A DNA stretch of 62,875 nucleotides from a virus (Duplodnaviria > Caudoviricetes). The stretch lies in the IMG/VR virus record IMGVR_UViG_3300015245_000040, positions 1 to 62,875 of that record, one strand, 5' to 3'. Shown here piece after piece: positions 9,629-42,933 of the stretch (positions are counted from its first letter, which is position 1; each line of letters starts with the position of its first letter). Both the position numbers and the translations under genes were made by a program. The notes beneath the pieces are model-generated. The model was not told where the DNA came from. It did not search any database and worked only from the letters and a program-made list of their open reading frames with translations.

Positions 9629-12600
9629 TTAGCTCGTCAATATTCCTTGCAAAAACGAGTTACTTACTGTCCAGCAGTTGTTACTCAAGTATATTACAAC
9701 TTGGGGCTAATCATTTCTGCTAGCCTCTACCTATTCCTAGGTAGCTCGGAGCACATCTTCCCTTCCGGGGTTGGCACATGCTCTCTACACACGCCCAGTA
9801 AGTTTGGACCTTACTTGCTTGGCTCGGTATTACCCGGTCTGGGCTTCCACCGAATTCGCCAACATTCCATCTAAGCCCTGGGCATTTCTACTTACTGCTT
9901 AGTGGCACAACCGAATCAGCACTCGTAAACTGATTCTTCTATGTTACCAGCCCACCCGATTAACCGTATCATCGCCAGAAATGTTATCGTTGACCTATTT
10001 ATGATCAACTTCTATATGTCACCATATAGCTCGGACTATATCATCCCTTTCGGGCCGGGCGCTCGTGGGCAGATTATTCTTTCGTCACTGCCTAGTCTCT
10101 AGACCTTTCACTGCCCTAGGGCCTGTAAGCCTTACATCAGTGACTTGGTACGGGATTGTCTCATTACTGAGGGTTTCCCCGTTTCACCCAGTTTGCAACT
10201 TATGCTTTTAATATTAACATAAGTGGGACTGCAAGTTGCTATCCTGATTTACGGAAAATCTATCTGGATCAAGTGGTACCATGTTACGCCTAGCATGGGG
10301 ACGCCAATAAATGTATTTCGTATTAAGGAAATACATAGTTGTGCTTGGAGTCCCGCCAACCGCTGTACCAGCCGCTGTCTGCGCTGGCAGTGGGTCGGTA
10401 CTGAAGCCCTGGAAGCCACCATCTAACACGACGTCAGCCTGCAGATACTTCAGGGTAGTAAACCCATACTCTGCCATGTCTGGGGCACGTCCCTCAGGCC
10501 CAATACGCTGAATGCTCTGTAAAGCATTCAGGTAATACCTATAGGTAACGTTATCAGCCACGATCAGGTCGGGGTAATCACGTCCACGCACCAGTTGCAC
10601 CCACAGCGCATCCATTTGTTGAAGGATGCTGGCTGAGCTAAGGGTTGTATTACCATTAGCAGATGCAGACCAGGCTTGGTTTTGCCAGAAGGTCCATCAA
10701 TTTTATATACTGTGCTTTACTGAACCCTGCTCCAACCCCTAACTGCATCTTCAAGTGATCCAACCCTGCTCTCCAACAGTATAACTCTGTTTTCAAGTGA
10801 GGCCACCCTTGATTCTATACCAGTCAGACGTAAGTTCAGAATTCCTATGTTATGGTTGACTTCAGCAAAGCTCCGTCTTACTTCCACATGAAAGTTATTA
10901 GTCGCAGCAGTAAGGGATTTCATCATTTCCACAACTTCATCGTCAGCCATTTTATACTCCTATATTTAAAACTTATTGTAATTGATGGCTTACGATCAGC
11001 ACAGTTTAATCTTTGTTATCATACCTGCTCTTTATCAGGTATTTCTACATATCACTATGTAGTTCGGACTATATCTTCCTTATTTCTAAGGCTGGACGCT
11101 CGTGTCAGGATTATTCTTTCGTCACCTGTTAGTCTCTGAACCTTCCACAACCCTAGGAACTTGTATGTTCTTACATTTGTGGCTTGGCTGCTGATTGTCT
11201 CTGAGAGAGTTTCCAGCAATTCATCCAGTTTTACAACGGCCTATCGACCGTTCATGAACGTGTCTTCCGCATTCATTACTCTTGATTCTAACAGATCAAT
11301 AATGGCTTCTTCCAATTTTGTTACCATACCGGCTTTTTATCCGATACTTCTGTATGTCGCCATACAGTTCAGCATATATCTTCAGGTAGTTTATTGGCTT
11401 TATGTAGATTATCAATTCCAACCATTACCTTCATATTCCATGGTACGTGCAATCCACTACATGTTTTACCGCGTAATGGATATATATGATCTACGTGATG
11501 CACAATACCAGTTTCTCTCGTGAGTCGTTGGGCTTCTTTGTATAAAGCCCCAATCTGATTCCAATGCTCATCAGTTAACCATCTTGGTATTCTTAGTTTC
11601 TTGGCTTCAGATCTACGTAAAGCATTAGCAATCACTTTTTCAGGGTTTGCTAATGCCCATTTTCTATGGGCTTCACGATAGAATTCTTGACGATCTGGGT
11701 TGTTTCTTGATGTTCTGCCATGCTTAATACGACTTTCAATTCCAAGACACCCACAACTTTGTGTGTGCCCACTTCTAACTGTATAATGTGATAGTTCAAC
11801 TTCACTACCACAATCACATTTAAAAGCCCAAATTGCTTCCCCACCGGGGGTAGACATCATATAAACAATAGCAGTTAGCCTACCAAACTTTTGTCCTGTT
11901 AAATCAAGTCTCATCGGCTTTGTATAAAGAGGGCATTGTTTACAGCAGAATTTCTGCTTGCCATTTCTTAAATACATAGCCCTAATAGGGACTTCATTTC
12001 CACAGTCACATCTACAAAGCCACCAAGCATTGTTATCCTTAGGATTTTTTACCTTCGTTAAGATTGTAAGAAACCCTGACTTCTTACCTGTTAAATCTGG
12101 GGCAATGCCTCTAGTCATTTACTACCTGCCGGGAGCTCGTGGTGGGGTTATTCTTTCGTCACCCACTATGCGTTACACCTTCATCAGCCCTAAGTCAATA
12201 GTTGACTATACATCTGATGCTTGGCTCGGTATTGTCTCTATTTCTAGAGAGTTTCACCGAATTCACCCGGTTAAGTGGCAAAACTTCTACCACTATTTTG
12301 CAGTTCCTCTAGACCACTGATAGAGACAGCCACTGCGGCCTGCCTGATTGGATACTCCGCCGCAGAAAACACCTGCGAAGGAGCGATATTGAGGGATTGA
12401 TAGCCGCTATCAATTTTGTTCTTTACAGGAGTTTTTTATCACCTGTATCTACCTGTCCCCAAGTAGATCAGCATACCTCTTCAGCCTGTGCGCTGGCGGG
12501 CGCTCGTGGAAGGATTATTCTTTCGTCACCTTCTATGCGTTACACCTTCTACTGCCCTGGGACTTGTAAGCCTTACATCAGTAGCTCGGCTCGGTATTAC

Positions 12601-15694: not shown

Positions 15695-16230
15695 TACCCA
15701 CCCCTCATAAATTGATTTCTTTGAATTGCATCAGTATAAGTAGAATATTCATGTTCGTCAACAGCTCTCTGATAACCACGTTGTTCTGATTGTCTAATTA
15801 TTTCATACTCACGTGTTCTTAACTGATTTAATTGAGCCTGAATTAATTTCTCGGCTTCTTTTAATTGCCCTACGCTTGCCTCTAACCTTTTTATTTCATC
15901 TTCCCTTGTTTGTAAATCCCGATCCTTGAATTTAAGCTTTTGTTCTATTTCTACACATTTGTCTTCTCGATCTGATATAATCTGTTCCCTATAGTCAAGA
16001 GTATTTACCTTACTTTTAATTTCTTCTAGTCTGGTATTAGATTCTTGATTTAATTTCTTCCAAAACAAATCAAATATACAAGAATCACAAACATGTACTA
16101 ATCCTGTAGGATTATTCTTCTTTAAAAGAATTATTTCCAATCCTAATTCACCAATAATATTTTCCCAACGACGTGTTGTAACTGCATTGCATATACTTGA
16201 GCATACATCACAAAAGAATTTTACAGACAT
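15694..16230 (-). CDS. Zn-finger plus coiled-coil protein
   Basis: CDVC...CDSC followed by coiled coil. Confidence 0.65.
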   Translation of the reverse strand: MSVKFFCDVCSSICNAVTTRRWENIIGELGLEIILLKKNNPTGLVHVCDSCIFDLFWKKLNQESNTRLEEIKSKVNTLDYREQIISDREDKCVEIEQKLKFKDRDLQTREDEIKRLEASVGQLKEAEKLIQAQLNQLRTREYEIIRQSEQRGYQRAVDEHEYSTYTDAIQRNQFMRGG

Positions 16231-16238
16231 TTTTCACC

Positions 16239-16568
16239 TTAGTTTAATCCATGTTTAGACGGCTTCTCATCTGGTTCCTCACCATCTAATTCATGTTCTT
16301 CAATCTCAAGCCAGTCACAAAGTTCTTTCCTTGAACTAAAGAATTGCCACATCATCTTATTTTCATCTTTTGGTGGGTTGGTTACATTTGTGATCTTCAT
16401 ATCAGCCACATTAACCACCACCATGACAGCCCCAGCACTTGGCTTAATTTCTATTAGATAAAAACCATTTCCTAAATTTACCTTTACACATCCATGTTGT
16501 GTATCTTCATCCCTGTGATTGAAAATCATAAACCACTTTCCAACCAAATCATCAGCCATTACATTCAA
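16239..16568 (-). CDS. Hypothetical protein
   Basis: 109-aa ORF; start may be ATG 16559. Confidence 0.6.
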   Translation of the reverse strand: MNVMADDLVGKWFMIFNHRDEDTQHGCVKVNLGNGFYLIEIKPSAGAVMVVVNVADMKITNVTNPPKDENKMMWQFFSSRKELCDWLEIEEHELDGEEPDEKPSKHGLN

Positions 16569-16622
16569 CCCTCATTGCCAATTCAAATATACCCAATAAT
16601 TATAGATAATTCAAACAAACTT

Positions 16623-16940
16623 GTTGCCTGCTCTCATTGAGCAAAGTATGTAAAGGGCAAGGCAATGCATGAAGGTAAACACCACAGAGACATGAAACCA
16701 TAGAAATAGCTCAGTTGGTAGAGCGCAAGTCTTGAGAACTTGATGGCGCAGGTTCAAATCCTGCTTTCATACAATCAGGGGCTAAGTCCCCTTCAAGGGT
16801 GCAAGGCTAAAGGTTCTAGGATGTAAGGTTTATATCCGGCAAGTGGGCTAGGGTTAAGCGTATAGACAGCGATCAAAATGACCTGGGATAAGTTTAGTAT
16901 CATGACAAAGTGGACTTCCCAGGCTTCTCATGCAGGTGAC
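16623..16940 (+). ncRNA. Putative structured ncRNA containing a tRNA-like domain (16700-16772)
   Basis: Closing stem GTTGCCTGC/GCAGGTGAC; internal hairpins; tRNA-like TAGCTCAGTTGGTAGAGC...GGTTCAAATCC with loop CT-TGA-GA, weak acceptor stem, no CCA. Confidence 0.55.
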
Positions 16941-16960
16941 CTTAACTAGGGGTAAGTAGA

Positions 16961-17482
16961 ATGCCTAAGATTATAGAAGCCATGAAGCGGATAAAGAGCA
17001 ACAAGGAAAAGATTGCTGATCTTCAGGCACGTATTGCTGAGGTATCAGCACACCTAAGCCATGAAACCCCTAAATACGGTACTCAGACCGAAACAACCGC
17101 TTCTATACGTGAATGGTCTCAAAGTATTCATGACACCATTCAGGAAAACATCAGACTGTTAACAGCTATTTCTAGAACTAATTTAGAAACAATGGCTACT
17201 ATCACTATTAATGATAGATCTGTTACCCAGTCTCTGGCTAGATGGATCTGGCGTAGGCGTGAGTATGCTGCACTGGACCTTATCACTTGGCAAAAGATGA
17301 CTGATCGTAATCTGAAAGAAGGAATGATGCCAAGTTCAACGGGCATTCCTCAGCCGGTTACTATAGTTAGGAACTATGATCCCAATGAACGGGATCGTAA
17401 AATTGCTGAATATAAGAGTGAAGCTCATGAAATTGATGCTACACTTGAAGTGATCAATGCGGTAACTGATCTGATAGAGTAA
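16961..17482 (+). CDS. Helical conserved hypothetical protein
   Basis: 173-aa ORF MPKIIEAMKRIK...EIDATLEVINAVTDLIE. Confidence 0.75.
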   Translation: MPKIIEAMKRIKSNKEKIADLQARIAEVSAHLSHETPKYGTQTETTASIREWSQSIHDTIQENIRLLTAISRTNLETMATITINDRSVTQSLARWIWRRREYAALDLITWQKMTDRNLKEGMMPSSTGIPQPVTIVRNYDPNERDRKIAEYKSEAHEIDATLEVINAVTDLIE

Positions 17483-17518
17483 GCCTTGTAAACATTGCTG
17501 GCGATGTAGCCGCCCTGT

Positions 17519-17596
17519 GCCCCATTAGCTCAAATTGGTAGAGCATTTCTTTTGTAAGGAAAAGGTTGCAGGTTCAAATCCATGCATGGGGCACCA
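17519..17596 (+). tRNA. tRNA-Thr(TGT)
   Basis: Cloverleaf GCCCCAT/ATGGGGC, loop TT-TGT-AA, GGTTCAAATC, encoded CCA. Confidence 0.85.
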
Positions 17597-18088
17597 ATGC
17601 TTTTATGTAAACAATGTGGGATAAAAGAAGCAAAAATACTGTTCTGCTCACGTCAATGTGCTGCAACGTTCAATAATCTCAAAAGGGGTGACAAAAATAG
17701 AAAAAATTGCCTTTGGTGCAATAATAAAACTTTAAATAAAATGTTTTGTTCCTATGAATGCACAAATTCATCCAAGAAATTTAGAAATAACGAAAAGTTT
17801 CTACAAGCATTAAAAGAAGGTTTTGTTATAGATGAAGATAAAATGAAAGAGTTGATCATTTTGACCAAAGGTAGGAAATGTCAAGTATGCAATTTAGATA
17901 CTTGGAATGGAAAACCTATACCACTTGAACTTGATCATATAGATGGAAATTCAGAAAATAGAATCCCTGAAAATTACAGAATAATATGTCCTAATTGCCA
18001 CGCGCAAACACCTACTTTTAAAGGAAAGAATCGGGGAAATGGCAGATATAAACGGGCAGAAAGATATCGACAAAATAAAAGTTTCTAA
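17597..18088 (+). CDS. HNH endonuclease with N-terminal Zn fingers
   Basis: CxxC/FCS repeats; LELDHIDGNSENRIPENYRIICPNCH; ATG immediately after the tRNA CCA. Confidence 0.9.
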   Translation: MLLCKQCGIKEAKILFCSRQCAATFNNLKRGDKNRKNCLWCNNKTLNKMFCSYECTNSSKKFRNNEKFLQALKEGFVIDEDKMKELIILTKGRKCQVCNLDTWNGKPIPLELDHIDGNSENRIPENYRIICPNCHAQTPTFKGKNRGNGRYKRAERYRQNKSF

Positions 18089-18122
18089 TCGCAGAGCCAT
18101 GTTCGATTCCTAGACAAGGCAC

Positions 18123-18197
18123 GGGCTGATAGTGATAATGGGAGCACACTGGTCCTGCAAACCGGAAGTCAGAGTTCGATCCTCTGTCAGTCCACCA
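18123..18197 (+). tRNA. tRNA-Ala(TGC)
   Basis: G3:U70 acceptor pair, loop CC-TGC-AA, CCA end. Confidence 0.85.
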
Positions 18198-18284
18198 ATT
18201 AAAGAAATTATAGAGCTGACTTTTCATAGAAGGATGAGCCGACGGCCTGTAGCTCAAGTGGTTAGAGTAATCACCTTAAAATAA

Positions 18285-18361
18285 AGTCCTGTAGCTCAAT
18301 CGGTTAGAGCAGACGGCATATAACCGCCAGGTTCTAGGTTCAAATCCTAGCAGGACTACCA
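18285..18361 (+). tRNA. tRNA-Ile(TAT)
   Basis: AGTCCTG/CAGGACT acceptor, loop CA-TAT-AA, CCA end. Confidence 0.8.
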
Positions 18362-18363
18362 AC

Positions 18364-18774
18364 ATGAAATTTTTCATATGTAACAATTGCAGTAAACACA
18401 TACCAATAAGTTATGGATCTTTTAATAAATACTGTTCTAGTAAATGTGATCAAGAATTCAGATTTAAAATAAGATATAATTTATGGATAAAAAATGAACT
18501 TATTGTTCCTGATTCATATGGGGCACGGGCATTAAAACGACTTGTATCATTTAGAGATGGATACAAATGTTCAGAATGCTCACTATCAGAATGGAGAGGT
18601 AAAAAACTATCACTTGAACTAGAGCATAAAGATGGAAATCATCAAAATAATGAGCCAGAAAATGTTTGTTTATTATGCCCTAACTGTCATAGTCAAACAC
18701 CTACTTTTAGGGGCAAAAACAAAGGTAAAGGTAGATCCTATTTTAGAAACAGATTTCATAAAAACAAAAATTAA
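18364..18774 (+). CDS. HNH endonuclease, paralog of 17597..18088
   Basis: LELEHKDGNHQNNEPENVCLLCPNCHSQTPTFRGKNKGKGR. Confidence 0.9.
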   Translation: MKFFICNNCSKHIPISYGSFNKYCSSKCDQEFRFKIRYNLWIKNELIVPDSYGARALKRLVSFRDGYKCSECSLSEWRGKKLSLELEHKDGNHQNNEPENVCLLCPNCHSQTPTFRGKNKGKGRSYFRNRFHKNKN

Positions 18775-18899
18775 GTATTATTTCAATTTCCAAACAAAAA
18801 CATAAAAATATTAGAATAGTTATATTTTATGGAATACACAAACACTAAGTGATAGATCTGGGTTCAATCCCCAGCAGACCAACCAGTAAAGAGGGCAAC

Positions 18900-19682
18900 A
18901 TGTCAGAAACTGAAGTATCAAACGACGCTGAATATGACTTCGTTGATAAGAGTTCATGGGGTCAGGGGGAATGGCTCAATGAGCCAGATAAAATAACTTG
19001 GACTGATCCTGAAACAGGCTATTCATGCATTGTCCTACGCGGTCCTGTAGGATCATTCTGTGGTTATGTTGGGGTACCTATCTATCACCCTGCTTATGGC
19101 CTAAGCTATAACGGATCTACTCAACATGATCATGATCAACGCAGTGATGCTTTTTTAAAAGCCCTTAGAAATAATGTTGATAAAAGTAAGCCTTTCCTTG
19201 ATCGTATTGGTCTTGATAAACTCCCTGAAACACCTGTGGTTCCAAATATCGGTGACAAAATTAGTGAAATTAGGGTCCATGGAGGTTTGACCTATTCAGG
19301 GGGACCTCATAAACCCACTAAGGAAATGTGGGAAAATTACAAATTACAGGCCTTTAGAAGTAGAATTGAAGCTGCAATGTTTCCTCATGGTGATTCGGCT
19401 GAATTTCTAAAGGAATGGGGACCATTTCTTGATGACTATGAAGCTTGGTCTAAGCAAGTAATCTTAAAAACTATTGGTTCAGAAAATTATGATGACGAAA
19501 ATTGGTACTTTGGCTTCGACTGTTCTCATCACCTTGACCTAAGCCCTAAGCTTGAAGCCACATTAAAATTGGTTGGTAGTTATTCATCACATACTCACTT
19601 GCGTGATGTCTATCGTAATATAAGTTACGTAAAAAAGGAAGTTGTGTCACTAGCCCAACAACTTAAACAATTGGCTCCGTAG
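18900..19682 (+). CDS. Conserved phage hypothetical protein
   Basis: FCGYVGVP, VHGGLTY and WYFGFDCSH motifs; GAGGGC RBS before ATG 18900. Confidence 0.8.
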   Translation: MSETEVSNDAEYDFVDKSSWGQGEWLNEPDKITWTDPETGYSCIVLRGPVGSFCGYVGVPIYHPAYGLSYNGSTQHDHDQRSDAFLKALRNNVDKSKPFLDRIGLDKLPETPVVPNIGDKISEIRVHGGLTYSGGPHKPTKEMWENYKLQAFRSRIEAAMFPHGDSAEFLKEWGPFLDDYEAWSKQVILKTIGSENYDDENWYFGFDCSHHLDLSPKLEATLKLVGSYSSHTHLRDVYRNISYVKKEVVSLAQQLKQLAP

Positions 19683-19746
19683 CTCAACTGGAAAGAGCAA
19701 CGAATTTCTAATTCGTAGGTTGAAAGTTCGAGTCTTTCCGGAGTCA
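19673..19746 (+). tRNA. tRNA-Arg(TCT)
   Basis: Cloverleaf; stem ACGAA/TTCGT, loop TT-TCT-AA. Confidence 0.88.
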
Positions 19747-19747
19747 C

Positions 19748-19821
19748 GGCGGGATGTCAGATTGGTTATGTAGGAAACTGCAAATTTCCCTAAGTGGGTT
19801 CGATTCCCTCTCTCGCCTCCA
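19748..19821 (+). tRNA. tRNA-Cys(GCA)
   Basis: GGAAA/TTTCC stem, loop CT-GCA-AA, U73, CCA. Confidence 0.8.
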
Positions 19822-19951
19822 TATGGTACGTGTAGCATAGTCTGGTTAATTCCCTCCCTGAAGTAAGGAATAAAATTCGTATGCAGCATATAAACGATTA
19901 TGAGTGTAATAAGGTTGAGATTAATTTATTTGACAGATGATAGTATTCTCA

Positions 19952-20026
19952 GGGCTTGTAGCTTAATCGGTCTAAAGCATACGACTTTTAATCGTAAGAT
20001 CCTGGGTTCAAATCCCTCCGTGTCCT
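19952..20026 (+). pseudogene. tRNA-Lys(TTT), probably degenerate
   Basis: Good D and anticodon arms (CT-TTT-AA) but mismatched T and acceptor stems. Confidence 0.6.
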
Positions 20027-21966
20027 CATAACAAATCACAATTCCCACTAACGCAAGATAACTCTTGACTACCTGTAGTCATATCTAGTTTCTCATAATC
20101 TTTCAGTTTAATCCAATCTATTTCCTGAGGAGTCTTATTTACCCATTCATTATATTGATCCTCAGTTAAATCAGCGAATGGAGCCTGCTGATAACTATGA
20201 TCTGAGAATGGAAGAAATGAAACTCCACTCATAAATTCAAAGTTATCATATATCCAACTACCTACCCTCATCCACTCATCTTCACGGACTGATACAGTCA
20301 CCGAAGGTTTATGTTCGGTCCAATAAAGTTGATATGATTTCCATATATCTAATTGTTTAACAGCACTAAAATCTTTCTTAAATAGGGCATTATCTGGACT
20401 TTTAAGGGGGAAGTAGAATACATAATTACTGTGATGCATTAAATCATCTTCATAGTAAAAACCTTGATCTATTAAAAGTTGTGAAACAGGGTCTTTCTTA
20501 TCATTTCTTACTGAACGTAGGTAAAAAGGAGAGTGCCTAGTATGGATACCAGAGGAGGTATTGTTAAGGGAACTGACAGTCCCTGAAGGCTTAACACAAG
20601 TAATCGCGGTTGCTTGCGGTATTCCAAACTTCTTACTCCATTCTAAATTGGTTTGAATGGCCCTCTTCCTTAACTTAGTTAATACTCCCTTTAAATGCTC
20701 AGTCCCTTGGGCACCTGATGTTATCACATTATCCATTATCCCTGTCATAGATACCCCTAACAACCTTTCATCCTCAAAGTTCTTTTTCCACGTCTTTGAT
20801 AAGAATTTAAAATTTGTCAGGGTAGATTGGATAGTTCCTAGAATAGTTGCAATTTTTACTTTTTCTAACAATGTATCAATAGTGTCATCATCCCTGATAA
20901 TAATTTCAGTTAGATTACACCCTTGTTTATCCCTTAGTATTATCTCAGAGCATGGATTACAGCCCCATTCATAATTAGGGTCCCGTAACCTGCAGTCATC
21001 ACCAAAGTGTTTCTTTCTAAAGTCATTAGATCGGTTAATTATATTCTTAGAAGCCCAGCGTGAAAATATGCCCCGTTCACCTGATTTGGAATCATACAAT
21101 GACTTCCATTCGGCGATAAAAGTATCCATTGGAGGAACTTTATCAGTATAAACTGCTGAATTATTAGCTATTGATCTATAAGATGTTGTTGACCACCACT
21201 GACCCATCTTAGCATTACGCATTCTATCATCAGACAAGTTTGACAATGATATAAGGGCCGACCGTCTCACACCCCCGCTCACAACTACATTTCCTATCAT
21301 GCAACAAATATCATGACAGTCTAAGGATGTAAGTTTTTGCCCTCTGTTCTGTTTAAATTTTTCTATTACAAATTTGAATAACTGATCTAAAGGTGCTGGT
21401 CCACTTGCCCTCCCACCAAATATCCTCAATATAGCACCAGCAGGTCTTATCTTACTAAGATCATAATTTGGAATGTTACCCATATATAAAAGGCTGATAA
21501 GCTCATTCAGGGATTTAGCCCATCCCAACTTAGAATCAGAAACTACTATTGTAGTATCAGTTGGATATAATTCATCAGGAACATCAGGAAGATTATTAAT
21601 AAATTGCCTCTCAATACTAAAACCTACACCACAACCATTCATTAAGACATAAAGCATCTCACCAAATGCTTTAGGGCTATTTATAGAAAGATAGAGACAA
21701 TTATAGCCTCCTATATTGTCCCTTTCTAAGGCTAGACCAGCAGTCATCAGACATCGCATCGACGGCATAACTTGATAATTTAGAATAGCTGATTCTAAAT
21801 AACTCCTAGTTTCAGTGTCTAGAATATATCCACAATTTTCTTTCAAATGGACTTGAAAGAAGTCAAAATACCTTTTAATCGTTTCAGGCCACCTTTCCCG
21901 TCTTCCTTCCTCATGCAAGTAACGGGCGTACTTTGAGATATAAACATAGTCTGAGAAGGTAGACAT
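20026..21966 (-). CDS. nrdJ: Class II (adenosylcobalamin-dependent) ribonucleotide reductase
   Basis: MPSMR, GCGVGFS, GGRASGP, GGVRRSALI, NPCSEI, TCVKPSGT, C-terminal CxxxxC. Confidence 0.92.
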   Translation of the reverse strand: MSTFSDYVYISKYARYLHEEGRRERWPETIKRYFDFFQVHLKENCGYILDTETRSYLESAILNYQVMPSMRCLMTAGLALERDNIGGYNCLYLSINSPKAFGEMLYVLMNGCGVGFSIERQFINNLPDVPDELYPTDTTIVVSDSKLGWAKSLNELISLLYMGNIPNYDLSKIRPAGAILRIFGGRASGPAPLDQLFKFVIEKFKQNRGQKLTSLDCHDICCMIGNVVVSGGVRRSALISLSNLSDDRMRNAKMGQWWSTTSYRSIANNSAVYTDKVPPMDTFIAEWKSLYDSKSGERGIFSRWASKNIINRSNDFRKKHFGDDCRLRDPNYEWGCNPCSEIILRDKQGCNLTEIIIRDDDTIDTLLEKVKIATILGTIQSTLTNFKFLSKTWKKNFEDERLLGVSMTGIMDNVITSGAQGTEHLKGVLTKLRKRAIQTNLEWSKKFGIPQATAITCVKPSGTVSSLNNTSSGIHTRHSPFYLRSVRNDKKDPVSQLLIDQGFYYEDDLMHHSNYVFYFPLKSPDNALFKKDFSAVKQLDIWKSYQLYWTEHKPSVTVSVREDEWMRVGSWIYDNFEFMSGVSFLPFSDHSYQQAPFADLTEDQYNEWVNKTPQEIDWIKLKDYEKLDMTTGSQELSCVSGNCDLL

Positions 21967-28916: not shown

Positions 28917-31763
28917 TCAATGTGTTGATTTTTGTCTACGAGCTGCGGCACGTTGTTGTTGCAACTTAATCTGAGCCAATTTATGCTGTTGTTGTGCTTG
29001 TGTCATCGTATGTTGATGTTGTTGCCTCTGCTGAGCCATTGTTTGCTCATGCTCGCGCTTCTTCTGTTCAAACTCATGCTCTTGTAATTGACGCTCACGT
29101 TCCCTTTGCTCTGCTTCCATGCTCATCTTGTGATGATCAATGGCCCCCGCCACAAACTGCTCTTGTTGGTCATATGATCTATCAAGTGCATGATCTTGCT
29201 GATCAACCATAGTCTGATGCTGAGTTGTTTGTGATTTAATTGATTCCTGCTTTAGCTCATTATCAGCCTTTGCCTTCTCAATCTGTAGTCTTATTAATTC
29301 AATCTGAAGTTCTAACTTTCTCATTTCTGCATCAATTTGTTTCTGATTAGTATCAGCCTGTGAGTTAGCCAGTTCCCCTTGATTTTCAAGCTGTTGTCTC
29401 TGCAACTCAGCTTGAGCCTGTTGTTGATCAGTCTTAGCCTTCATCTGACTTGATTGTATATCAGCTTGAGCCTTAGCCTTGACCGCTTCCAACTTCATCT
29501 GCTCTGGATTAGGTTGTTGTGAAGCCATCTGTTGATGACGTTTAGCCGCTACTATCGCTTCATCACAGAAATCTTCAATAGCCTGTTCCAATTCCCTTCC
29601 TACATTAAAGCCCCTGACACCAAACTGAAGGAACTTACCTAATAAAGGGGCTGCTTCTGGCATTTGGGCTGAAATCTGCATAGCCTGAGACATAAACTGA
29701 GTTACTGAGGCAATAAACGCAGTCCTATCACCTTTTTCCTGTTCCCTATCTGCATAGATCGTAGACTCAACCTCAATCTCAACCCTGAAGCCCAATAACT
29801 TCTCATTCCTGATTAATTGAATTGATTTAATGATCCTCTCCAACCCCTTGATCTTATCAAGCATCTCAGGGGTGATTGGAGGCTGTTGTGGAGGCATTGG
29901 GCCTTGAAAACCCATACCTGGACGTGGGGGCATTCCTTGTGGAAGTTGCCCTGGTACCCCTGATTGAAAGGGTTGGCCAGGAGGCATTCCTTGAGAGGTT
30001 CCCATACCCGGTGGGGGCATACCCATTGGACCTGGTGGTCTTGGTGGCTGTGGCCCACCTTGAGGGGACTGTCCAAGGGGTGGCATACCCGGCGGTCCAG
30101 GGGGCGCGGATGATGGTCCTGGTGGTTGTGATCCATCTGAGGGGTTCCCCATCCCAGGGGGCAGAAGTTGCTTTAAGGGGTCAGGTTCAGTCACATCCAT
30201 AGTGCCTAAACCCTGCTCATACAGAGCCCCTGAAACATCAATAAGGGATTGAGAACTAAAATGCTGACACATAATATCAGCCATTATTCTCAACGTATCC
30301 CTAGCAAACCGGGCTATTTCATTCTGCCTATGCTGAAGCCTAGTTCCTGATGCGTTTGATTTGAGCCTTTGACCCCCTAAGGTCTCCCTGGCATCTGAAG
30401 TTCCTCTCATAATATCATTGATACCAGTAAGCCGGTCCATTTCAGCAATGGCTTGTTCTTTTATTTTTGTTAATTCTTCAATAACACCCATAATTTCTTT
30501 GAGTGGAATAAAACTCAGGTTACCAGCAACACCACCTTTCTCAGCAAAAGCAGCCCAGTCATCAACTGGAATCATTTCATTTTCAACAGACTCATTGAAG
30601 AGCCTTTGAATACCTTTAGCAGCAGCATTATAGACGCCAGCCACTTTACAAGCCTTAGCCAGCATCGCTATACGTTGGGTCAATTCATCAATCTGAATTG
30701 CCTGATCTTGGTATTGAATAAAATCAGGAACAGGAACTAAGGTATTATTAGTTACATTTGAGTAAAGTGGCTTAGGGCACGGAAAGAAATTCTCAAGTTT
30801 CAGGGGATCATCTTTACGATCACAAAGGTATTGATAACCTTCAGCCACCCAAATAACTTCTTGATGGGTGCGATCCCAGATCTCATAAATCTGAGCCTTC
30901 TCATCTATCTCATGTCCTTGAGATGTATCCTCTTGACGCCTTGTTTTTCTATCATCTTTTTGAAAAGGTATAGCCTTACCAATCTTACTGCCAAACCTGC
31001 GCTTCATCTGATCACGGGTCATGTAAACCCGTTTACCTACAGCCGTCACCTCTTTCCAAGTTCTAGCCCTATTTGGAAAGGTATAAAAATCAGTCCACTG
31101 TACAAAGTCAACAGGGGTTGACTCCCTGGTAACCCTATCACCAGTTTCCCTCAACTTCATTTCTGATTCTGAATCGTCTTCCCCCTCAATGTCACCCATT
31201 GCATCAGATTGATCCATTTCATCATCATTGGGAATAGACATGCCCTCACCAAATTCAGGCTCATATCTAACCCATACTGATCCCCGTCCTGATAATAAAT
31301 AATCAAGCAATGACTGACGTATTGCTTCATCAAATCCATTAATCTCAATCTCATTTCTAAGACCCCGCTCAAGCATCTGAGCAGCACCTCTGCCTACTGG
31401 ATCCTTATCATTAAACCTGCGCTCACAAACAGGAACAGGTTGCTTACCATATAAAGCAGGGATCAATATCTGAACATTAGCCCAGAGAGCATTATAATGA
31501 CGCTGACCATCTTCATCAGTGCGATTACGCTCATCCCGGTAACGCTTTTCAATAGTGGTGCCACGCTTCAGCCAGCGTTTAAATTCCTTGTCATCATCAA
31601 CCTGAATAATCTGTTGAAGCCAGAATGACGCCAACCTACGCCCCACAGCCTCCCCATCGGGGCCAGCCAATTTATCAAGTTCAGGCTCCGGATATGACTT
31701 CCTACGGTCGTCATCCCGCTCTTCTGAATCTTCACGTGGTCTTGTATATCCAGGTGCTGCCAT
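28917..31763 (-). CDS. Portal protein
   Basis: Follows terL; YNALWANVQIL, FFPCPKPLY, TGINDIMRG, FRVEIEVEST; long coiled-coil C-terminus. Confidence 0.85.
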   Translation of the reverse strand: MAAPGYTRPREDSEERDDDRRKSYPEPELDKLAGPDGEAVGRRLASFWLQQIIQVDDDKEFKRWLKRGTTIEKRYRDERNRTDEDGQRHYNALWANVQILIPALYGKQPVPVCERRFNDKDPVGRGAAQMLERGLRNEIEINGFDEAIRQSLLDYLLSGRGSVWVRYEPEFGEGMSIPNDDEMDQSDAMGDIEGEDDSESEMKLRETGDRVTRESTPVDFVQWTDFYTFPNRARTWKEVTAVGKRVYMTRDQMKRRFGSKIGKAIPFQKDDRKTRRQEDTSQGHEIDEKAQIYEIWDRTHQEVIWVAEGYQYLCDRKDDPLKLENFFPCPKPLYSNVTNNTLVPVPDFIQYQDQAIQIDELTQRIAMLAKACKVAGVYNAAAKGIQRLFNESVENEMIPVDDWAAFAEKGGVAGNLSFIPLKEIMGVIEELTKIKEQAIAEMDRLTGINDIMRGTSDARETLGGQRLKSNASGTRLQHRQNEIARFARDTLRIMADIMCQHFSSQSLIDVSGALYEQGLGTMDVTEPDPLKQLLPPGMGNPSDGSQPPGPSSAPPGPPGMPPLGQSPQGGPQPPRPPGPMGMPPPGMGTSQGMPPGQPFQSGVPGQLPQGMPPRPGMGFQGPMPPQQPPITPEMLDKIKGLERIIKSIQLIRNEKLLGFRVEIEVESTIYADREQEKGDRTAFIASVTQFMSQAMQISAQMPEAAPLLGKFLQFGVRGFNVGRELEQAIEDFCDEAIVAAKRHQQMASQQPNPEQMKLEAVKAKAQADIQSSQMKAKTDQQQAQAELQRQQLENQGELANSQADTNQKQIDAEMRKLELQIELIRLQIEKAKADNELKQESIKSQTTQHQTMVDQQDHALDRSYDQQEQFVAGAIDHHKMSMEAEQRERERQLQEHEFEQKKREHEQTMAQQRQQHQHTMTQAQQQHKLAQIKLQQQRAAARRQKSTH

Positions 31764-31765
31764 TA

Positions 31766-32452
31766 TTATTCTTTCTTACCGTAATTCTTATTCCACATTT
31801 CTTCCTGATACAATCTATCAGCCTTACGTTCAGAGGTCTCAGGCAACTTCATTTTTAGATCACCTGTTGAATCTTCCCTTGATGCTAATCCCCACCTGGC
31901 TCCACTAGTCCTATCACCAGTAACTGTCCTAGCATAGGGATATTGTTGCTGAAGACTTCTCAGTAAACTTCTCATATCTGAAGTGCCAAAAACATGAGCA
32001 GAATTATTTGCTTGAGCGGCCCTATTTGTAAATGGTAATGGACTTCCTTCATCAGCTCCAATACTAGAAATATGAATATTATCAGTCCTTGGGTCATGAA
32101 TTAGTTCTACCCTACCAACAGATCCAACCATAGGTTTAGTATCATCTAATATGTCATGATCATAAGTAGTTTTTCCAGTCTTTCTATTATAAAACTTATT
32201 AGCAGGTTTAGATAAAAACAAAGCGGCAAGATAAGGACTCATTTTACCTGCCAAAGCAGTAGCCCCTTTTGCTACAATAGGACCGGCTGCCCCTAAAGCA
32301 TAAGGCCATAAATCTGAAGCAGCAGATCCTTGGTCTGGTTTTGTTTCTCGAGTAGGAGCTTGAGATGATACACCCTTTAACTGATCTGATATCAGTTTAT
32401 TTATCTGATCAGGGTCTTGTCCAGGGAATAGGTCTGAGTAATCTTCTGGCAT
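31766..32452 (-). CDS. Hypothetical protein
   Basis: 228-aa ORF between terL and portal. Confidence 0.65.
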   Translation of the reverse strand: MPEDYSDLFPGQDPDQINKLISDQLKGVSSQAPTRETKPDQGSAASDLWPYALGAAGPIVAKGATALAGKMSPYLAALFLSKPANKFYNRKTGKTTYDHDILDDTKPMVGSVGRVELIHDPRTDNIHISSIGADEGSPLPFTNRAAQANNSAHVFGTSDMRSLLRSLQQQYPYARTVTGDRTSGARWGLASREDSTGDLKMKLPETSERKADRLYQEEMWNKNYGKKE

Positions 32453-34104
32453 TATTTTATTCTGGCTCGGCTTGTGAACCTAATCCTATCTTGTTTATTC
32501 TCACTTGCGGCAAAAACGTCATCTAAAGAAACATTACAAACATTAGGGTCAGTTGAGAGGATCTTAGGACGTTCCTCTTCTGGTGATTTATATGGACTGC
32601 CGGAAATCATTCGGTCCAATATCTGGCCCACGAGTCCTATTGCGTCGACTGCGTCATCATTCTTACCAGCAGGGAAAGTAAGCATTTCACGTCTTAATTC
32701 AGCGTACCACGGTTTCCTGCTGGGAAAGTAAACCTTAAGCATAGCCATTCTTCCGCGAATTGATTGAGCACGTATAGATTTATCACCACGGGTGGGGAAC
32801 TGTGCCCTGGCTATATACAGCCCACGCTCCATAAGCCTTTTATGAATAAAGGGGCCAACACCTGCCCTGATCTGCCCTGACTCCTCAGCCCAACCTAAGG
32901 GTCTCCATTCTTTAACTAAGTCACAAAATGCCTCAACCCATTTATCAGATGAAGTCCTATTACGCCAAAGGTCTAGAATAAAAACATTATTATCTGGATC
33001 TACTCCAGCCACAATATGCACTGTATAATCCCCATCCCCACTAGTTACTGCATAGTCACTAGCCCCATAAATACGCAAAGATTCACGGTGAGGAACTGGA
33101 GTACGGGTTCCTTCACCATATTCCATAAACCAAGAGGATTCGAAAAAGTTACCAGTCTCAGGGGCAGGTCTTTGTTGATAAAGAGCTGACCAAGCCCGTG
33201 CTGTAGCAGGGTTGGTCTGTAATGGTATATAATCTTCTTGTCTGAAGTACTCAGGCCAAAGCCATTCACCGTGATTTCTACCTAGAGGATCATCATCCCT
33301 CTCGCAGACCATTGGTAGACAAACTACATACCAATCATAACCATCCTGTCCTTTAATCCAACCCGATTCACCATTATAATTTACTGGCAAAATGCGTCCA
33401 GGTGGATCATCTTCATGCCACCTAGTGTTGATTCCTACCTCCCATGCACCTGGTTTTTTACGTGTCCTCAATGAGTTAACATACTCATCCCATGTTCTAT
33501 CACGTATCAATTTAGAATCAGCATCTTGTCTGCCTTTAATCAAATCATCCCATACAACACCATCAGCACGGTTACCAGTAATACCTGATAGTATACCAAC
33601 AGCCTTCCATTCTGATCCATTAGTCAAGGTCCATTCATCAGCAGCAGCACTATCAGGTGATAGCTCTGTCCCAAAGATACGTTTATATAAAGGTTGCCTG
33701 ACAATAGACCTAGCCCACCTACCTTGCTTCTTAGGTAGATCGCTACCATAACCAGTTACAATAACTGTCTTATTAGAAAATCTACCCATAAAATGGGTGG
33801 GAAAACATACTGAAGAATAGAGACTTTTTGCTGATCCTGGAGGCATTAATCCCAGAAGCCTTGATATCTTTCCATCTTCTACATCTTGAAGACACTTCAA
33901 CCACAAAAGATGGTGAGCACCAAAAGCCTTAGGTATTGGTACGAAACGTTCTTTTTCTTCTTCATCAGAATCAGCAGGACGGGTTGGAATATCAATTATA
34001 GAAGCATAAGTTAATAAATCATTCTTAGCCCTAAACCTCTTCCGACGTTCAGTCTGTAGATCCCTCAGTTCCCCTGATAGTCTCTGTACTTCTGCTGAAG
34101 GCAT
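32452..34104 (-). CDS. terL: Terminase large subunit
   Basis: MPPGSAKS Walker A, VVWDD Walker B, TRWHEDD, LYQQRP, ASDYA, FPAGKNDDAVD. Confidence 0.95.
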   Translation of the reverse strand: MPSAEVQRLSGELRDLQTERRKRFRAKNDLLTYASIIDIPTRPADSDEEEKERFVPIPKAFGAHHLLWLKCLQDVEDGKISRLLGLMPPGSAKSLYSSVCFPTHFMGRFSNKTVIVTGYGSDLPKKQGRWARSIVRQPLYKRIFGTELSPDSAAADEWTLTNGSEWKAVGILSGITGNRADGVVWDDLIKGRQDADSKLIRDRTWDEYVNSLRTRKKPGAWEVGINTRWHEDDPPGRILPVNYNGESGWIKGQDGYDWYVVCLPMVCERDDDPLGRNHGEWLWPEYFRQEDYIPLQTNPATARAWSALYQQRPAPETGNFFESSWFMEYGEGTRTPVPHRESLRIYGASDYAVTSGDGDYTVHIVAGVDPDNNVFILDLWRNRTSSDKWVEAFCDLVKEWRPLGWAEESGQIRAGVGPFIHKRLMERGLYIARAQFPTRGDKSIRAQSIRGRMAMLKVYFPSRKPWYAELRREMLTFPAGKNDDAVDAIGLVGQILDRMISGSPYKSPEEERPKILSTDPNVCNVSLDDVFAASENKQDRIRFTSRARIK

Positions 34105-37573: not shown

Positions 37574-38104
37574 TTAGGACTTACCTCTAGAACCCAAACG
37601 ATGGGCATTTCTGTGCCCACTCATCCTGAGTGGCCCACAATGTTCTGATGGGGCATGTCCAAAACCATGACTTCCAGATACTGAACCTTCACGGAACATG
37701 TGTGCCTTACCGGTAGATTCAGGGTGATGTTCGGCCCTGGCTGTAGCTGCACCATGCATGGCATTGGCCTTTGACCCCACATGACCAAGGGGATTTGAAC
37801 TCTCACCATGCAGCTCCCCATCCCAGTTAAAAGGACGGTGATCCGACTTGTTGCCTACAGCCTCACCTGACTTACCATGAAAGTTCATGCTATGAGCATC
37901 ATTCTGATAGCCACGCTTGACTGTGCCATGACCTTCTACCCCATCACGGGCAATAGCATGTGCTGCATGGGGGGTAGAATTATTACGACCTGGACCTGCT
38001 GTATCACCAAGGGACTTCTGACCCTTGCCATGCCCACCATGCGCTGATTTATCATAAGTTCCATCACCAGAACCAATAATCTTATGTGTAGGTTGACTAA
38101 CCAT
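37574..38104 (-). CDS. His/Gly-rich low-complexity protein
   Basis: AAAGGA RBS before ATG 38104. Confidence 0.65.
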   Translation of the reverse strand: MVSQPTHKIIGSGDGTYDKSAHGGHGKGQKSLGDTAGPGRNNSTPHAAHAIARDGVEGHGTVKRGYQNDAHSMNFHGKSGEAVGNKSDHRPFNWDGELHGESSNPLGHVGSKANAMHGAATARAEHHPESTGKAHMFREGSVSGSHGFGHAPSEHCGPLRMSGHRNAHRLGSRGKS

Positions 38105-42745: not shown

Positions 42746-42933
42746 GACATCTGAGAGTGATGGGTAGACAAGTTGAAGATCCTGAAAACAGGGGTGAGAC
42801 AGCACATTGGATTGCAGCCCCAATGAAGGATGTTGGAACTATTCAACAATTTCATGAAGTTGTTGAGCGTGCAGATGCGGTTATGGAAAAACTACAGAAT
42901 ACAATTAAATATTTGCAGGAAAAGGGTAAATGA
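42742..42933 (+). CDS. Hypothetical protein
   Basis: ATGA overlaps on both sides. Confidence 0.5.
   Translation: MRHLRVMGRQVEDPENRGETAHWIAAPMKDVGTIQQFHEVVERADAVMEKLQNTIKYLQEKGK

Follow-up and report, generated by a model that had tools for sequence, protein, structure and literature searches.

The DNA analysed here is a single stretch of 62,875 nucleotides (the window), which makes up positions 1 to 62,875 of the IMG/VR virus record IMGVR_UViG_3300015245_000040 (Duplodnaviria; Caudoviricetes). Its tRNA array contains two neighbouring cassettes of the same plan, in each of which an intact tRNA gene and the gene for an HNH endonuclease are enclosed by the two stubs of another, disrupted tRNA gene. 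The features, with the basis of each in brackets, are:

17483..17518, plus strand: 5' stub, covering nucleotides 1-36 of a tRNA-Thr(UGU)-type gene that has been disrupted (read from the sequence; tRNA alignments)
17519..17596, plus strand: intact replacement tRNA-Thr(UGU) with encoded CCA (ARAGORN; Rfam RF00005, 59.7 bits, E 1.7e-11)
17597..18088, plus strand: HNH1, gene for a free-standing HNH (His-Me finger) endonuclease of 163 aa (open reading frame; PHROG profiles)
18087..18121, plus strand: 3' stub, nucleotides 37-73 of the tRNA-Thr(UGU)-type gene whose 5' stub begins at 17483 (read from the sequence; orphan T-loop; blastn-short)
18123..18197, plus strand: tRNA-Ala(UGC), which comes next in the array, separated from the Thr 3' stub by one base (ARAGORN; Rfam, 48.3 bits)
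18243..18284, plus strand: second cassette, 5' stub resembling tRNA-Ile(UAU) (blastn-short match at 18246-18267; alignment)
18285..18361, plus strand: intact tRNA-Ile(UAU) with CCA (ARAGORN; Rfam, 59.7 bits)
18364..18774, plus strand: HNH2, a 136-aa paralog of HNH1 (open reading frame; PHROG profiles; comparison with HNH1)
18846..18885, plus strand: 3' stub of the second cassette (orphan T-loop at 18862; match to a tRNA-Ile in locus L060)

Besides HNH1 and HNH2, the open reading frames in 17483-20027 comprise one for a phrog_2164 protein. An earlier, sequence-only reading of this DNA had described the first cassette much as it is found here: the 5' half at 17483-17518 abuts the intact tRNA-Thr(TGT) at 17519-17596, which both ARAGORN and Rfam recognise, and the HNH frame starts on the base after CCA, with its ATG at 17597. 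The decayed 3' half ending in ACAAGGC-A, which had been placed after the HNH stop codon, is also present, but it overlaps that codon by two A's; the TAA of HNH1 occupies 18086-18088, and its final two A's double as nucleotides 37-38 of the 3' stub, which starts at 18087.

The Thr stubs, 36 and 35 nt long, can be read position by position as a tRNA. The 5' stub consists of GCCTTGT (nucleotides 1-7), AA, ACAT/TGCTGGCG/ATGT, A, GCCGC (27-31), CC and TGT (34-36); ACAT/TGCTGGCG/ATGT provides a D stem of 4 bp in which G18G19 is in register, the D arm being unusual, and the anticodon triplet TGT forms the final three bases. The 3' stub continues with AA, TCGC, AGAG, CCATG, TTCGATT, CCTAG, ACAAGGC and A, the last of these being the discriminator base. 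The two acceptor strands pair at 7/7 positions, ACAAGGC being the exact reverse complement of GCCTTGT. The insertion point thus lies in the anticodon loop, exactly between nucleotides 36 and 37, without any loss or duplication, and the insert between the stubs measures 568 bp (17519-18086).

The resemblance of the stubs to a tRNA exceeds chance. Across the 62.9-kb window there are 12 matches to the T-loop motif GTTCRANYC, nine in called tRNAs and three orphans, and two of the three orphans lie directly 3' of the two HNH genes, at 18101 and 18862. The acceptor strand predicted from the orphan at 18101 has its reverse complement at 17483, 619 nt upstream, and a blastn-short match covers 18101-18116 of the 3' stub. 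Against 831 distinct phage tRNAs, of which 48 are tRNA-Thr(tgt), the 5' stub reaches a best score of 21, as high as none of 200 shuffles (maximum 17), and its top five matches are all tRNA-Thr(tgt), with one tRNA-Leu tying for fifth place; the score of the 3' stub, 18, is likewise reached by 0/200 shuffles, its best matches showing no isotype specificity. An exact 19-mer from the D arm of the 5' stub is also found in intact phage tRNAs on eight IMG/VR contigs, on none of which a homolog of HNH1, HNH2 or the neighbouring open reading frames was detected. These carriers are tRNA-Lys(UUU) genes, and the assignment to Thr therefore depends on the TGT triplet and on how the matches rank. A phage tRNA-Lys in locus L195 is identical to the 5' stub over nucleotides 4-26; relative to it, stub positions 2 and 3 and their partners in the 3' stub have all changed with pairing maintained, and relative to Thr genes of the same subclass, of which L094 and L039 have intact natural alleles, the disrupted tRNA has A10-T25 in place of G10-C25. 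Such paired changes show that the halves once made a working tRNA. Together the stubs are the two contiguous halves of a single tRNA-Thr(UGU)-type gene. They are not fragments of unrelated tRNAs, the case that the sequence-only reading had named as counting against it.

That gene has since decayed. The T stem has two mismatches in five pairs (3/5 paired), the 3' strand of the anticodon stem lacks one base and an aberrant C occupies position 33. ARAGORN did not call the split gene with introns of up to 1500 nt allowed at -ps90, and it rejected the halves joined by script at default stringency, -ps95 and -ps90; it took -ps80 for them to be accepted, with the anticodon shifted. Rfam, run on stretches trimmed to the junctions with truncated matches allowed, returned no tRNA match for any stub, in a test insensitive enough to miss the well-preserved Ile 5' stub too, itself an imperfect control whose tRNA-like part stops a few bases before the end of the stretch. 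As pseudogene remnants, the Thr stubs indicate that the insertion event in the window is old and, being both short and decayed, they would make poor homology arms at present.

The spare tRNA-Thr diverges strongly from the disrupted one in the D arm and anticodon stem, and neither intact cassette tRNA has a close relative among the 831 tRNAs (at most 57/75 identical). HNH1 is located inside the tRNA cluster and outside any intron or intein. It matches the PHROG HNH families 10822, 14736 and 1271 (E 1e-23 to 1e-17) and, below the cutoff of 21.4 bits, Pfam PF01844 (HNH; E 0.031, 14.8 bits), while a PDB sequence search with HNH1 gave nothing meaningful. In an alignment of 129 homologs it retains H114 (129/129), N126 (129/129) and H135 (126/128), together with the zinc-ligand cysteines C95, C98, C131 and C134 (each in 127-128 of 128-129); these His, Asn and His residues are the catalytic ones of the beta-beta-alpha-metal motif of HNH / His-Me finger nucleases, and the cysteines supply the CX2C...CX2C pattern that goes with it. 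At one site it has R where 110/129 homologs have N. Gp117 of Serratia phage Slocum, for which the record notes similarity to T5 hegA / F-TflIV, is 39% identical over residues 43-148 of HNH1.

The tight junction between tRNA and nuclease bears on expression. The HNH1 frame is already open from an upstream ATG at 17582, within the tRNA-Thr, and a G-rich Shine-Dalgarno-like run lies in the acceptor strand of the cassette tRNA, upstream of the HNH1 ATG. Sequestration of this run is as good a reading as the leaderless mRNA proposed by the sequence-only reading, and tRNA 3' maturation at the CCA/ATG junction could equally destroy the start region of HNH1. Having no leader of its own, HNH1 would be expressed from read-through tRNA transcripts, at a level probably kept low by tRNA folding or processing. 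A limitation of expression through tRNA processing has been proposed before (PMC2330249).

The second cassette repeats the architecture with a different anticodon and is better preserved. HNH1 and HNH2 are paralogs, as had been noticed, with 40% identity over 116 aa (E 4e-29) and the common motif CPNCHxQTPTFxGKNxGxGR. The CCA of the intact tRNA-Ile(UAU) ends two bases upstream of the HNH2 ATG. The best match of the 5' stub is the tRNA-Ile(tat) of L060, to which the 3' stub is 100% identical over 18 nt; GTGAT of the 3' stub pairs 5/5 with ATCAC of the 5' stub, the T arm is intact and a CCA is present. Joined by script, the two Ile stubs are called as a tRNA by ARAGORN at default stringency.

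Homologs of HNH1 are linked to tRNA genes well beyond this virus. In a family set of 129 distinct HNH homologs or units from GenBank phages, IMG/VR and metagenomes, a tRNA lies within 100 nt in 108/129 units, and tRNAs are present in 96/104 loci with a homolog in one set and 70/80 in another. The commoner order is HNH then tRNA, with the end of the HNH frame abutting or overlapping the next tRNA in 60/129 units, and a tRNA fused directly upstream, as in HNH1, is found in only 4/129 units and, by eye, in L179, where a tRNA-Thr(tgt) of the stub's subclass is followed by CCA, one base and the ATG of an HNH. Among the 27 rows that match HNH1 almost full-length, 15 are flanked by a tRNA-Thr no more than 200 nt away. 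A phylogeny compared with the type of adjacent tRNA, as the sequence-only reading had proposed, reveals clustering: the label changes 50 times on the tree, compared with a mean of 78.3 when shuffled, and 0/200 shuffles were as low. In one starred clade all rows (9/9) adjoin Ile(gat) with varying upstream neighbours; HNH1 itself forms a deep branch without starred support. Fragments resembling tRNAs are also denser beside the HNH genes than elsewhere in the loci (1.42 vs 0.38 per kb). Detectable stubs are few, a blastn-short screen finding a 5' stub in 14/129 units and a 3' stub in 11/129; as most relatives sit between intact tRNAs, splitting and replacing a tRNA gene is not the sole mode of this family.

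Where stubs do occur, they can form the same plan. Locus L152 has a 5' stub, an intact tRNA-Thr(tgt), an HNH and a 3' stub with 7/7 acceptor pairs; L034 has a 5' stub, an HNH, an intact tRNA-Leu(tag) and a 3' stub, again with 7/7 acceptor pairs; and in L143 nucleotides 2-23 and 42-74 of one tRNA-Ile allele enclose an HNH and an intact tRNA-Ile(gat). A strict scan for stub pairs returned four units (five rows, L034 appearing twice) and none in the reverse-string control, one of the four (L036) being uninspected and possibly due to chance. In L098 and L074, the HNH frame lies within a group I intron in the anticodon loop of tRNA-Leu(UAA), which ties enzymes of the HNH1 clade to anticodon-loop insertion sites. 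The clade includes intron-borne, between-tRNA and split-and-replace forms, which might make up an evolutionary series.

Searches for closer relatives returned little. No empty-site allele of the disrupted tRNA-Thr and no near-identical copy of the cassette were found, the best HNH1 homolog in IMG/VR and the metagenomes being 46% identical, and HNH2 retrieved seven weak loci from IMG/VR. A blastn search of the block against GenBank phages gave only short matches to HNH and tRNA genes and no close relative. Four relatives (L001-L004) share the upstream open reading frame at 53-61% aa identity, a distance too great for an empty site to be recognised in them; they lack an HNH homolog, lack a tRNA downstream of that frame and give no tblastn match to the window's reductase. 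No sequencing runs, RNA included, were found that cover 16900-19000. Of the family of mobile tRNA+HNH units suggested by the sequence-only reading, the linkage to tRNAs and the parallel loci are borne out, while most members have no stubs and mobility is something we infer, since neither an empty site nor a close copy (best 46%) was found.

Homing endonuclease genes in phage tRNA clusters are known already, and the split-and-replace cassette is a variant of that kind. A group I intron in the tRNA anticodon loop was considered and rejected: no Intron_gpI match was obtained in 16000-21000 at E up to 1 with a model that did find introns in L095, L046, L098 and L074, and the Thr halves do not join to a functional cloverleaf, as ARAGORN's rejections at default, -ps95 and -ps90 indicate. 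Group I introns with endonuclease frames resemble the cassette in their insertion in the tRNA anticodon loop and in having tRNA halves as 'exons' or homology arms, whereas the cassette has no ribozyme, a spare gene restores function and the 'exons' decay. Integrase-mediated insertion was also rejected, there being no recombinase among the frames in 17483-20027 and the flanks being halves, not repeats. Integrase islands and prophages in tRNA genes insert by means of a site-specific recombinase, and all that they duplicate of the same tRNA is its 3' part; as in the HNH1 cassette, a tRNA gene is targeted and the element supplies sequence that preserves a working tRNA, but the cassette has no integrase, its halves are complementary instead of repeated and it carries a whole, divergent tRNA. 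Homing endonuclease genes reportedly also split protein genes, examples being mobE inside nrdA of Aeh1 and those 'fractured genes' that have split inteins. In these, too, a free-standing gene lies inside a host gene and its cost is offset by a device other than an intron, but their halves stay functional, whereas the Thr halves are abandoned and a full substitute is carried in.

The T5 enzymes F-TflI, -II and -IV reside in the tRNA cluster of that phage (PMC2330249) and, like HNH1, the F-Tfl type is encoded by a free-standing HNH gene among tRNA genes, with which it is co-transcribed. In the T5-like loci L015 and L020 the HNH gene starts 12-13 nt past one tRNA and overlaps the next; unlike the HNH1 cassette, the T5-like loci inspected show neither a split target tRNA nor a replacement of the same isotype. 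The T4 enzyme SegB, also free-standing in a tRNA cluster, cleaves tRNA genes and promotes inheritance of the T4 tRNA region, its own gene and the neighbouring tRNA genes being preferentially inherited (PMC2330249). It differs from HNH1 in belonging to the GIY-YIG superfamily, in recognising the T-psi-C motif with relaxed specificity and in its intergenic location, and no split target with a spare is described for it. The association of homing endonuclease genes with tRNAs is widespread (PMC13096335), and an HNH enzyme has reportedly been implicated in the diversity of the tRNA repertoire in Cluster M mycobacteriophages (Pope et al. 2014, cited in PMC6409571).

Judged on its sequence, the first cassette is likely to be a free-standing HNH homing endonuclease which moves together with a spare tRNA-Thr(UGU), itself presumably immune to cleavage, and has settled inside a resident tRNA-Thr(UGU)-type gene. 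In a co-infecting genome, HNH1 would cut or nick the uninterrupted, sensitive tRNA allele within or close to its anticodon stem-loop; the cassette-bearing genome would serve as the repair template, with the flanking tRNA halves as homology arms, and the spare tRNA and HNH would be copied together. The spare tRNA, presumably immune to the nuclease, would bring back the lost decoding and so take the role that self-splicing has for intron-borne endonucleases.

Three other explanations have to be weighed against this one. Chance resemblance of flanks that never derived from a tRNA is next to negligible: neither ARAGORN nor Rfam calls the flanks, as it would predict, but no shuffle matches the score of either stub, the top five matches of the 5' stub are all Thr(tgt), the D-arm 19-mer occurs exactly in intact tRNAs, the acceptor strands are complementary at 7/7 positions where the T-loop predicts, and the reverse-string control of the scan for stub pairs has 0 matches. 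It is very improbable that the interrupted tRNA still functions, either by splicing out a huge intervening sequence (group I/II or other) or as a split tRNA assembled in trans. The anticodon loop is indeed the site of bacterial tRNA group I introns, and relatives of HNH1 are encoded in such introns of tRNA-Leu(UAA), but Rfam finds no intron family match in 16000-21000 at E up to 1, the two T-stem mismatches, the missing anticodon-stem base and C33 speak against a working product, the joined halves fail ARAGORN above -ps80, and the intact tRNA of the same anticodon in the insert makes the split gene redundant.

The remaining alternative, which we regard as unlikely, is a one-off rearrangement, in which HNH1 is an ordinary array-dwelling enzyme, the stubs are what illegitimate or microhomology repair left behind once any array nuclease had made a break, and the tRNA and HNH arrived separately or by chance, with no homing as a unit. 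SegB breaks are reported to yield microhomology-driven rearrangements of tRNA-nuclease loci (PMC13096335), 115/129 family members have no 5' stub, the Thr stubs are decayed and no second copy of the Thr cassette was found in IMG/VR or the metagenomes. Such an accident would sit poorly with a junction as clean as that at nucleotides 36/37, with the same plan appearing twice in the window around paralogs that share 40% identity, with its recurrence in three unrelated loci, each with a replacement tRNA of the same isotype, and with HNH clades that retain the adjacent tRNA type as their other neighbours vary.

Homing by an endonuclease together with its spare tRNA, the explanation we prefer for this locus, might also be a general strategy, in which HNH homing endonucleases invade tRNA genes by bringing along, in place of a self-splicing intron, a whole same-isotype tRNA as a spare that is immune to cleavage, and the two halves of the invaded gene serve as homology arms; this wider claim we put forward tentatively, as one that could well turn out either way. 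A full-text search of the literature found no description of such a spare-tRNA homing strategy. Homing endonucleases evade counter-selection through self-splicing introns or inteins or through an intergenic location. If the strategy is real, splitting a gene and supplying its replacement would be a third way past counter-selection, and it would provide a concrete mechanism for the gain, swap and diversification of tRNA genes in phage arrays, in which such elements would drive fast turnover of alleles. The stub pairs indicate probable target sites of otherwise uncharacterised nucleases. Phage tRNA arrays are recognised as counter-defence loci against host systems that cleave tRNAs (PMC13096335), and the strategy, if true, could explain odd-shaped phage tRNAs and bear on the escape of phages from such tRNA-cutting defences.

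The Thr cassette, which carries the endonuclease gene HNH1, splits a resident tRNA gene into two halves (stubs) and supplies an intact tRNA beside them, and the second (Ile) cassette, carrying the paralog HNH2, has the same plan and is better preserved.

Features of the two cassettes, by position in the window
16961-17482, plus strand, ORF directly before the Thr 5' stub (upstream ORF); stop TAA at 17480-17482
17483-17518, plus strand, Thr 5' stub
17519-17596, plus strand, intact tRNA-Thr(UGU), encoded CCA at its end; Rfam 59.7 bits
17597-18088, plus strand, HNH1, 163 aa; its ATG is the next base after CCA; stop TAA at 18086-18088
18087-18121, plus strand, Thr 3' stub: AA, TCGC, AGAG, CCATG, TTCGATT, CCTAG, ACAAGGC, A
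18243-18284, plus strand, Ile 5' stub
18285-18361, plus strand, intact tRNA-Ile(UAU), CCA included
18364-18774, plus strand, HNH2, beginning two bases past the tRNA-Ile CCA
18846-18885, plus strand, Ile 3' stub

The Thr 5' stub opens with the acceptor strand GCCTTGT (nt 1-7) and AA (8-9), continues with a D arm of ACAT (10-13), TGCTGGCG (14-21, GG being 18-19) and ATGT (22-25), and closes with A (26), GCCGC (27-31), C, C and TGT (34-36). Because it ends at nt 36 and the 3' stub begins at nt 37 at 18087, the insert is 17519-18086, that is, 568 bp between nt 36 and 37, with no loss and no duplication. The sequence-only reading had an intact tRNA-Thr(TGT) adjoining the 5' half and the HNH ATG on the base after CCA, with which the coordinates agree (17518/17519 and 17596/17597); the decayed 3' half that it placed after the HNH stop is present but begins inside that stop, the two A's of the TAA serving as nt 37-38. 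A tRNA-Ala starts at 18123, one base past the stub. The HNH1 frame is already open from an ATG at 17582, within the tRNA; homologs align to the 17597 start from residue 1-3 onward.

Several lines of evidence bear out the claim that these flanks are halves of one tRNA: the acceptor reverse complement, co-varied nt 2 and 3, and shuffle tests. The T-loop motif GTTCRANYC occurs 12 times on both strands of the window, nine times within called tRNAs and three times as an orphan, and the orphans at 18101 and 18862 each lie just past one of the two HNH genes. For the former, the acceptor strand set by tRNA geometry is ACAAGGC, the reverse complement of which lies 619 nt upstream, at 17483. The stubs were aligned to 831 distinct tRNAs from the comparison loci (GenBank phages, IMG/VR and metagenomes; L-numbers), 48 of them Thr(tgt); the five best local alignments of the 5' stub are all to tRNA-Thr(tgt) (scores 21, 20, 16, 15 and 14, the fifth rank tied by a tRNA-Leu), and 200 shuffles scored 17 at most. 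The 3' stub scores 18, which 0/200 shuffles equalled, and does not name an isotype because its best matches are T arms of several. The Thr identity of the split gene is a probable one, read from TGT at 34-36 and the ranking of matches; position 33 is an abnormal C. The third orphan T-loop, GTTCAAATC at 37800 on the minus strand, lies outside called tRNAs; it may be a further tRNA remnant or a chance match.

The Thr stub falls in a phage tRNA subclass marked by A8 A9 and a GCAT-TGCTGGCG-ATGC D arm and also found in L094, L039, L086, L009 and L179, the stub's first D-stem pair being A-T versus G-C in the subclass, with both sides altered. The exact 19-mer of its D arm occurs in eight IMG/VR contigs (L189-L196), there in intact tRNA-Lys(UUU), and the L195 gene agrees with the stub throughout nt 4-26 and differs from it at nt 2 and 3. 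Since the 3' stub has changes complementary to nt 2 and 3, the stubs co-varied as one acceptor stem. The shared 19-mer points to a close relationship between Thr(UGU) and Lys(UUU) genes in this phage tRNA subclass, possibly by anticodon remoulding.

The two split genes differ in preservation. In the Thr gene 3/5 T-stem pairs are retained and the 3' anticodon-stem strand numbers four bases in place of five; the split gene goes uncalled by ARAGORN in intron mode, and the halves, joined in script, pass at -ps80 only, with the anticodon shifted. The Ile stubs retain 5/5 paired anticodon-stem strands, 5/7 acceptor pairs and an intact T arm, for both halves the best match is the L060 tRNA-Ile(tat), and once joined they are called at default stringency, as Ile(tat) if joined 35/36 and as 'Leu(taa)' if 36/37; the exact break point is ambiguous between the two. 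Rfam scans ending at the junctions found no stub, and missed even the well-preserved Ile 5' stub.

HNH1 is sub-threshold against Pfam HNH (E 0.031) and matches PHROG HNH families at E 1e-23. Its proposed paralogy with 18364..18774 holds (40% identity over 116 aa, E 4e-29); HNH1 has two CxxC...FCSxxC modules in its N-terminal 60 residues, and HNH2 has one. When 129 distinct homologs are aligned, HNH1 shows all strongly conserved residues (C95, C98, W103, the ELDHIDGN block with H114, N126, CPNCH with H135, T138, T140 and N145) bar one, R122, where 110/129 have N. Other nuclease genes in the window are an HNH of a different PHROG (374) at 11369-12118 on the minus strand and, at 42930-43811 on the plus strand, an endonuclease VII-like N-terminus joined to a dCTP deaminase-like domain.

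By tblastn, HNH homologs occur in 220 GenBank phage records, including T5-like, T4-like and jumbo phages, Herelleviridae, actinophages and cyanophages, and lie within a tRNA array in most of the 17 records examined; for the copy in Slocum, the annotation gives similarity to T5 hegA / TflIV. With IMG/VR and metagenome loci included, 96/104 and 70/80 homolog loci have tRNAs. Selection of stop-free HNH ORFs of 90 aa or longer with over 60 matched residues left 162, or 129 distinct proteins. In 108/129 units one ORF end or the other has a tRNA no more than 100 nt away, the ORF end abuts or overlaps the next same-strand tRNA (-40 to +6) in 60, and a tRNA ends 30-100 nt upstream in 45; fusion within 5 nt upstream was counted in only four (both window genes, L019 and L145), a fifth, L179, being recognized by eye (CCA, one base, ATG). 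The phylogeny proposed as a check, a quick IQ-TREE labelled by the nearest tRNA within 40 nt, is clustered, with 50 label changes versus a shuffled mean of 78.3 and 0/200 shuffles as low, near-copies inflating the clustering. One starred clade precedes Ile(gat) in 9/9 rows, with eight different upstream neighbours, and another precedes Leu(tag) in 12/14. HNH1 is a deep branch without support, and 15/27 rows matching it nearly full-length have a tRNA-Thr flank within 200 nt.

In most relatives the HNH gene follows a leader of 40-75 nt, in which a hairpin encloses a TATAAATA-like box and a Shine-Dalgarno sequence also occurs; in many, the bracketed box reads (T/C/G)ATAAATA and the Shine-Dalgarno then follows. 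We take the box to resemble the T4 late-promoter consensus.

Leaders with the box
L026, 2540-2580
L029, 2540-2572
L032, 2400-2437
L060, 2285-2320
L153, 2270-2312
L034, 2985-3030

HNH1 and HNH2 have no leader, and the acceptor strand of the tRNA contains their sole Shine-Dalgarno-like runs (GGGG and AGGA); their translation would therefore require either the unprocessed precursor or a processed RNA that is almost or wholly leaderless. Within 16500-20100 no terminators were seen and promoter-like sites show no excess (10 versus 11.7 expected). Control of homing endonuclease levels through tRNA processing has been proposed for SegB and T5 enzymes in passages of PMC2330249.

Stubs also occur in other loci. 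A blastn-short screen with every called tRNA as query gave, in the tRNA-masked loci, 1.42 tRNA-like fragments per kb in zones by HNH genes versus 0.38 elsewhere; 5'-type fragments lie within 200 nt upstream in 14/129 units, 3'-type within 150 nt downstream in 11/129 and both in 3, counts that are lower bounds because the Thr 5' stub of the window itself escaped this screen. A strict scan (orphan T-loop after the unit, exact reverse complement of the predicted acceptor strand within 70 nt before it) returned four units in five rows, namely the window Thr cassette, L152, L034 (twice) and a doubtful L036, and its reverse-string control none. L152 is the closest parallel: a 5' stub GCCGCCG..., an intact tRNA-Thr(tgt), 71 nt, an HNH and a 3' stub that ends in CGGCGGC and whose T stem holds the HNH stop. 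L034 and L143 have the mirror order (5' stub, leader, HNH, intact tRNA, 3' stub), the intact gene being tRNA-Leu(tag) or tRNA-Ile(gat). Both L143 stubs match a tRNA-Ile allele intact in L029 beside a different HNH lineage; L086 has the same 5' stub as L143 (100% identity to the L029 allele over 22-24 nt), and the L029 stub is identical to nt 1-18 of the allele intact in L033. Across these four loci, tRNA-Ile(gat) alleles of at least two types are combined crosswise with two HNH lineages, which looks like allele replacement in both directions.

HNH ORFs of the same clade also lie within group I introns of tRNA-Leu(UAA) at the canonical site (L098 2125-2900, also L100; L074 2068-2810), and in L095 and L046 a free-standing HNH accompanies an ORF-less group I intron. 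Separately, tRNA genes with short internal inserts were seen at L061 2944-3104 (also L062, L065) and L012 1319-1440, these being a tRNA-Thr(agt) lengthened by about 86 bases (a 158-nt match to Rfam tRNA at 53.5 bits) and a 122-nt gene annotated tRNA-Lys in Erwinia phage pEa_SNUABM_49. Full-length tRNA-like genes not called by ARAGORN at default (L143 1242-1403, L086 2350-2425) match Asn(gtt) and Ala(tgc) genes over 76-79 nt. On phage contigs, a GOLLD RNA (238.9 bits, L098 3870-4296) and a tmRNA (86.7 bits, L080 133-535) adjoin tRNA/HNH regions.

The genome is one 62,875-bp tailed-phage contig with portal (28917-31763), large terminase (32452-34104) and tail-fibre-like genes. ARAGORN calls nine tRNA genes, seven within 16699-20027, which Rfam also finds. 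Four IMG/VR relatives (L001-L004) share the upstream ORF at 53-61% aa identity; because none has a homolog of HNH1, HNH2, the 18900-19682 ORF or the window reductase, or a tRNA downstream of that ORF, the tRNA/HNH block looks accessory, the four being too distant to act as an empty site. In the 'tRNA-Ser(tga)' called at 16699-16772 the variable arm is short and the acceptor stem mismatched; this gene occupies the place of, and aligns with, a tRNA-Thr(tgt) upstream of the same ORF in L002 and L003, of which it may be a remoulded or decaying ortholog.

A split tRNA could be a one-off accident, and against this we place the clean 36/37 junction, the second occurrence of the plan 160 bp away around a diverged paralog, and the parallel foreign loci, where the replacement tRNA is of the same isotype. 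The proposed family of mobile tRNA+HNH units stands as to the shared plan, found twice here and paralleled elsewhere; since no empty site and no near copy of the cassette was found, and the Thr stubs are decayed, mobility is what we infer, and the Thr copy may no longer be active. Homing endonuclease genes in tRNA clusters are documented in passages of PMC2330249, PMC13096335, PMC8421152, PMC6409571 and PMC10448857; no split target tRNA with a carried replacement was found in the full-text literature searched, outside which Pope et al. 2014 and Akulenko et al. 2004 may bear on the matter. The simplest account is a homing endonuclease that would target a tRNA gene around the anticodon stem-loop and carry a divergent spare tRNA, the halves of the victim tRNA staying as flanks that could serve as homology arms.
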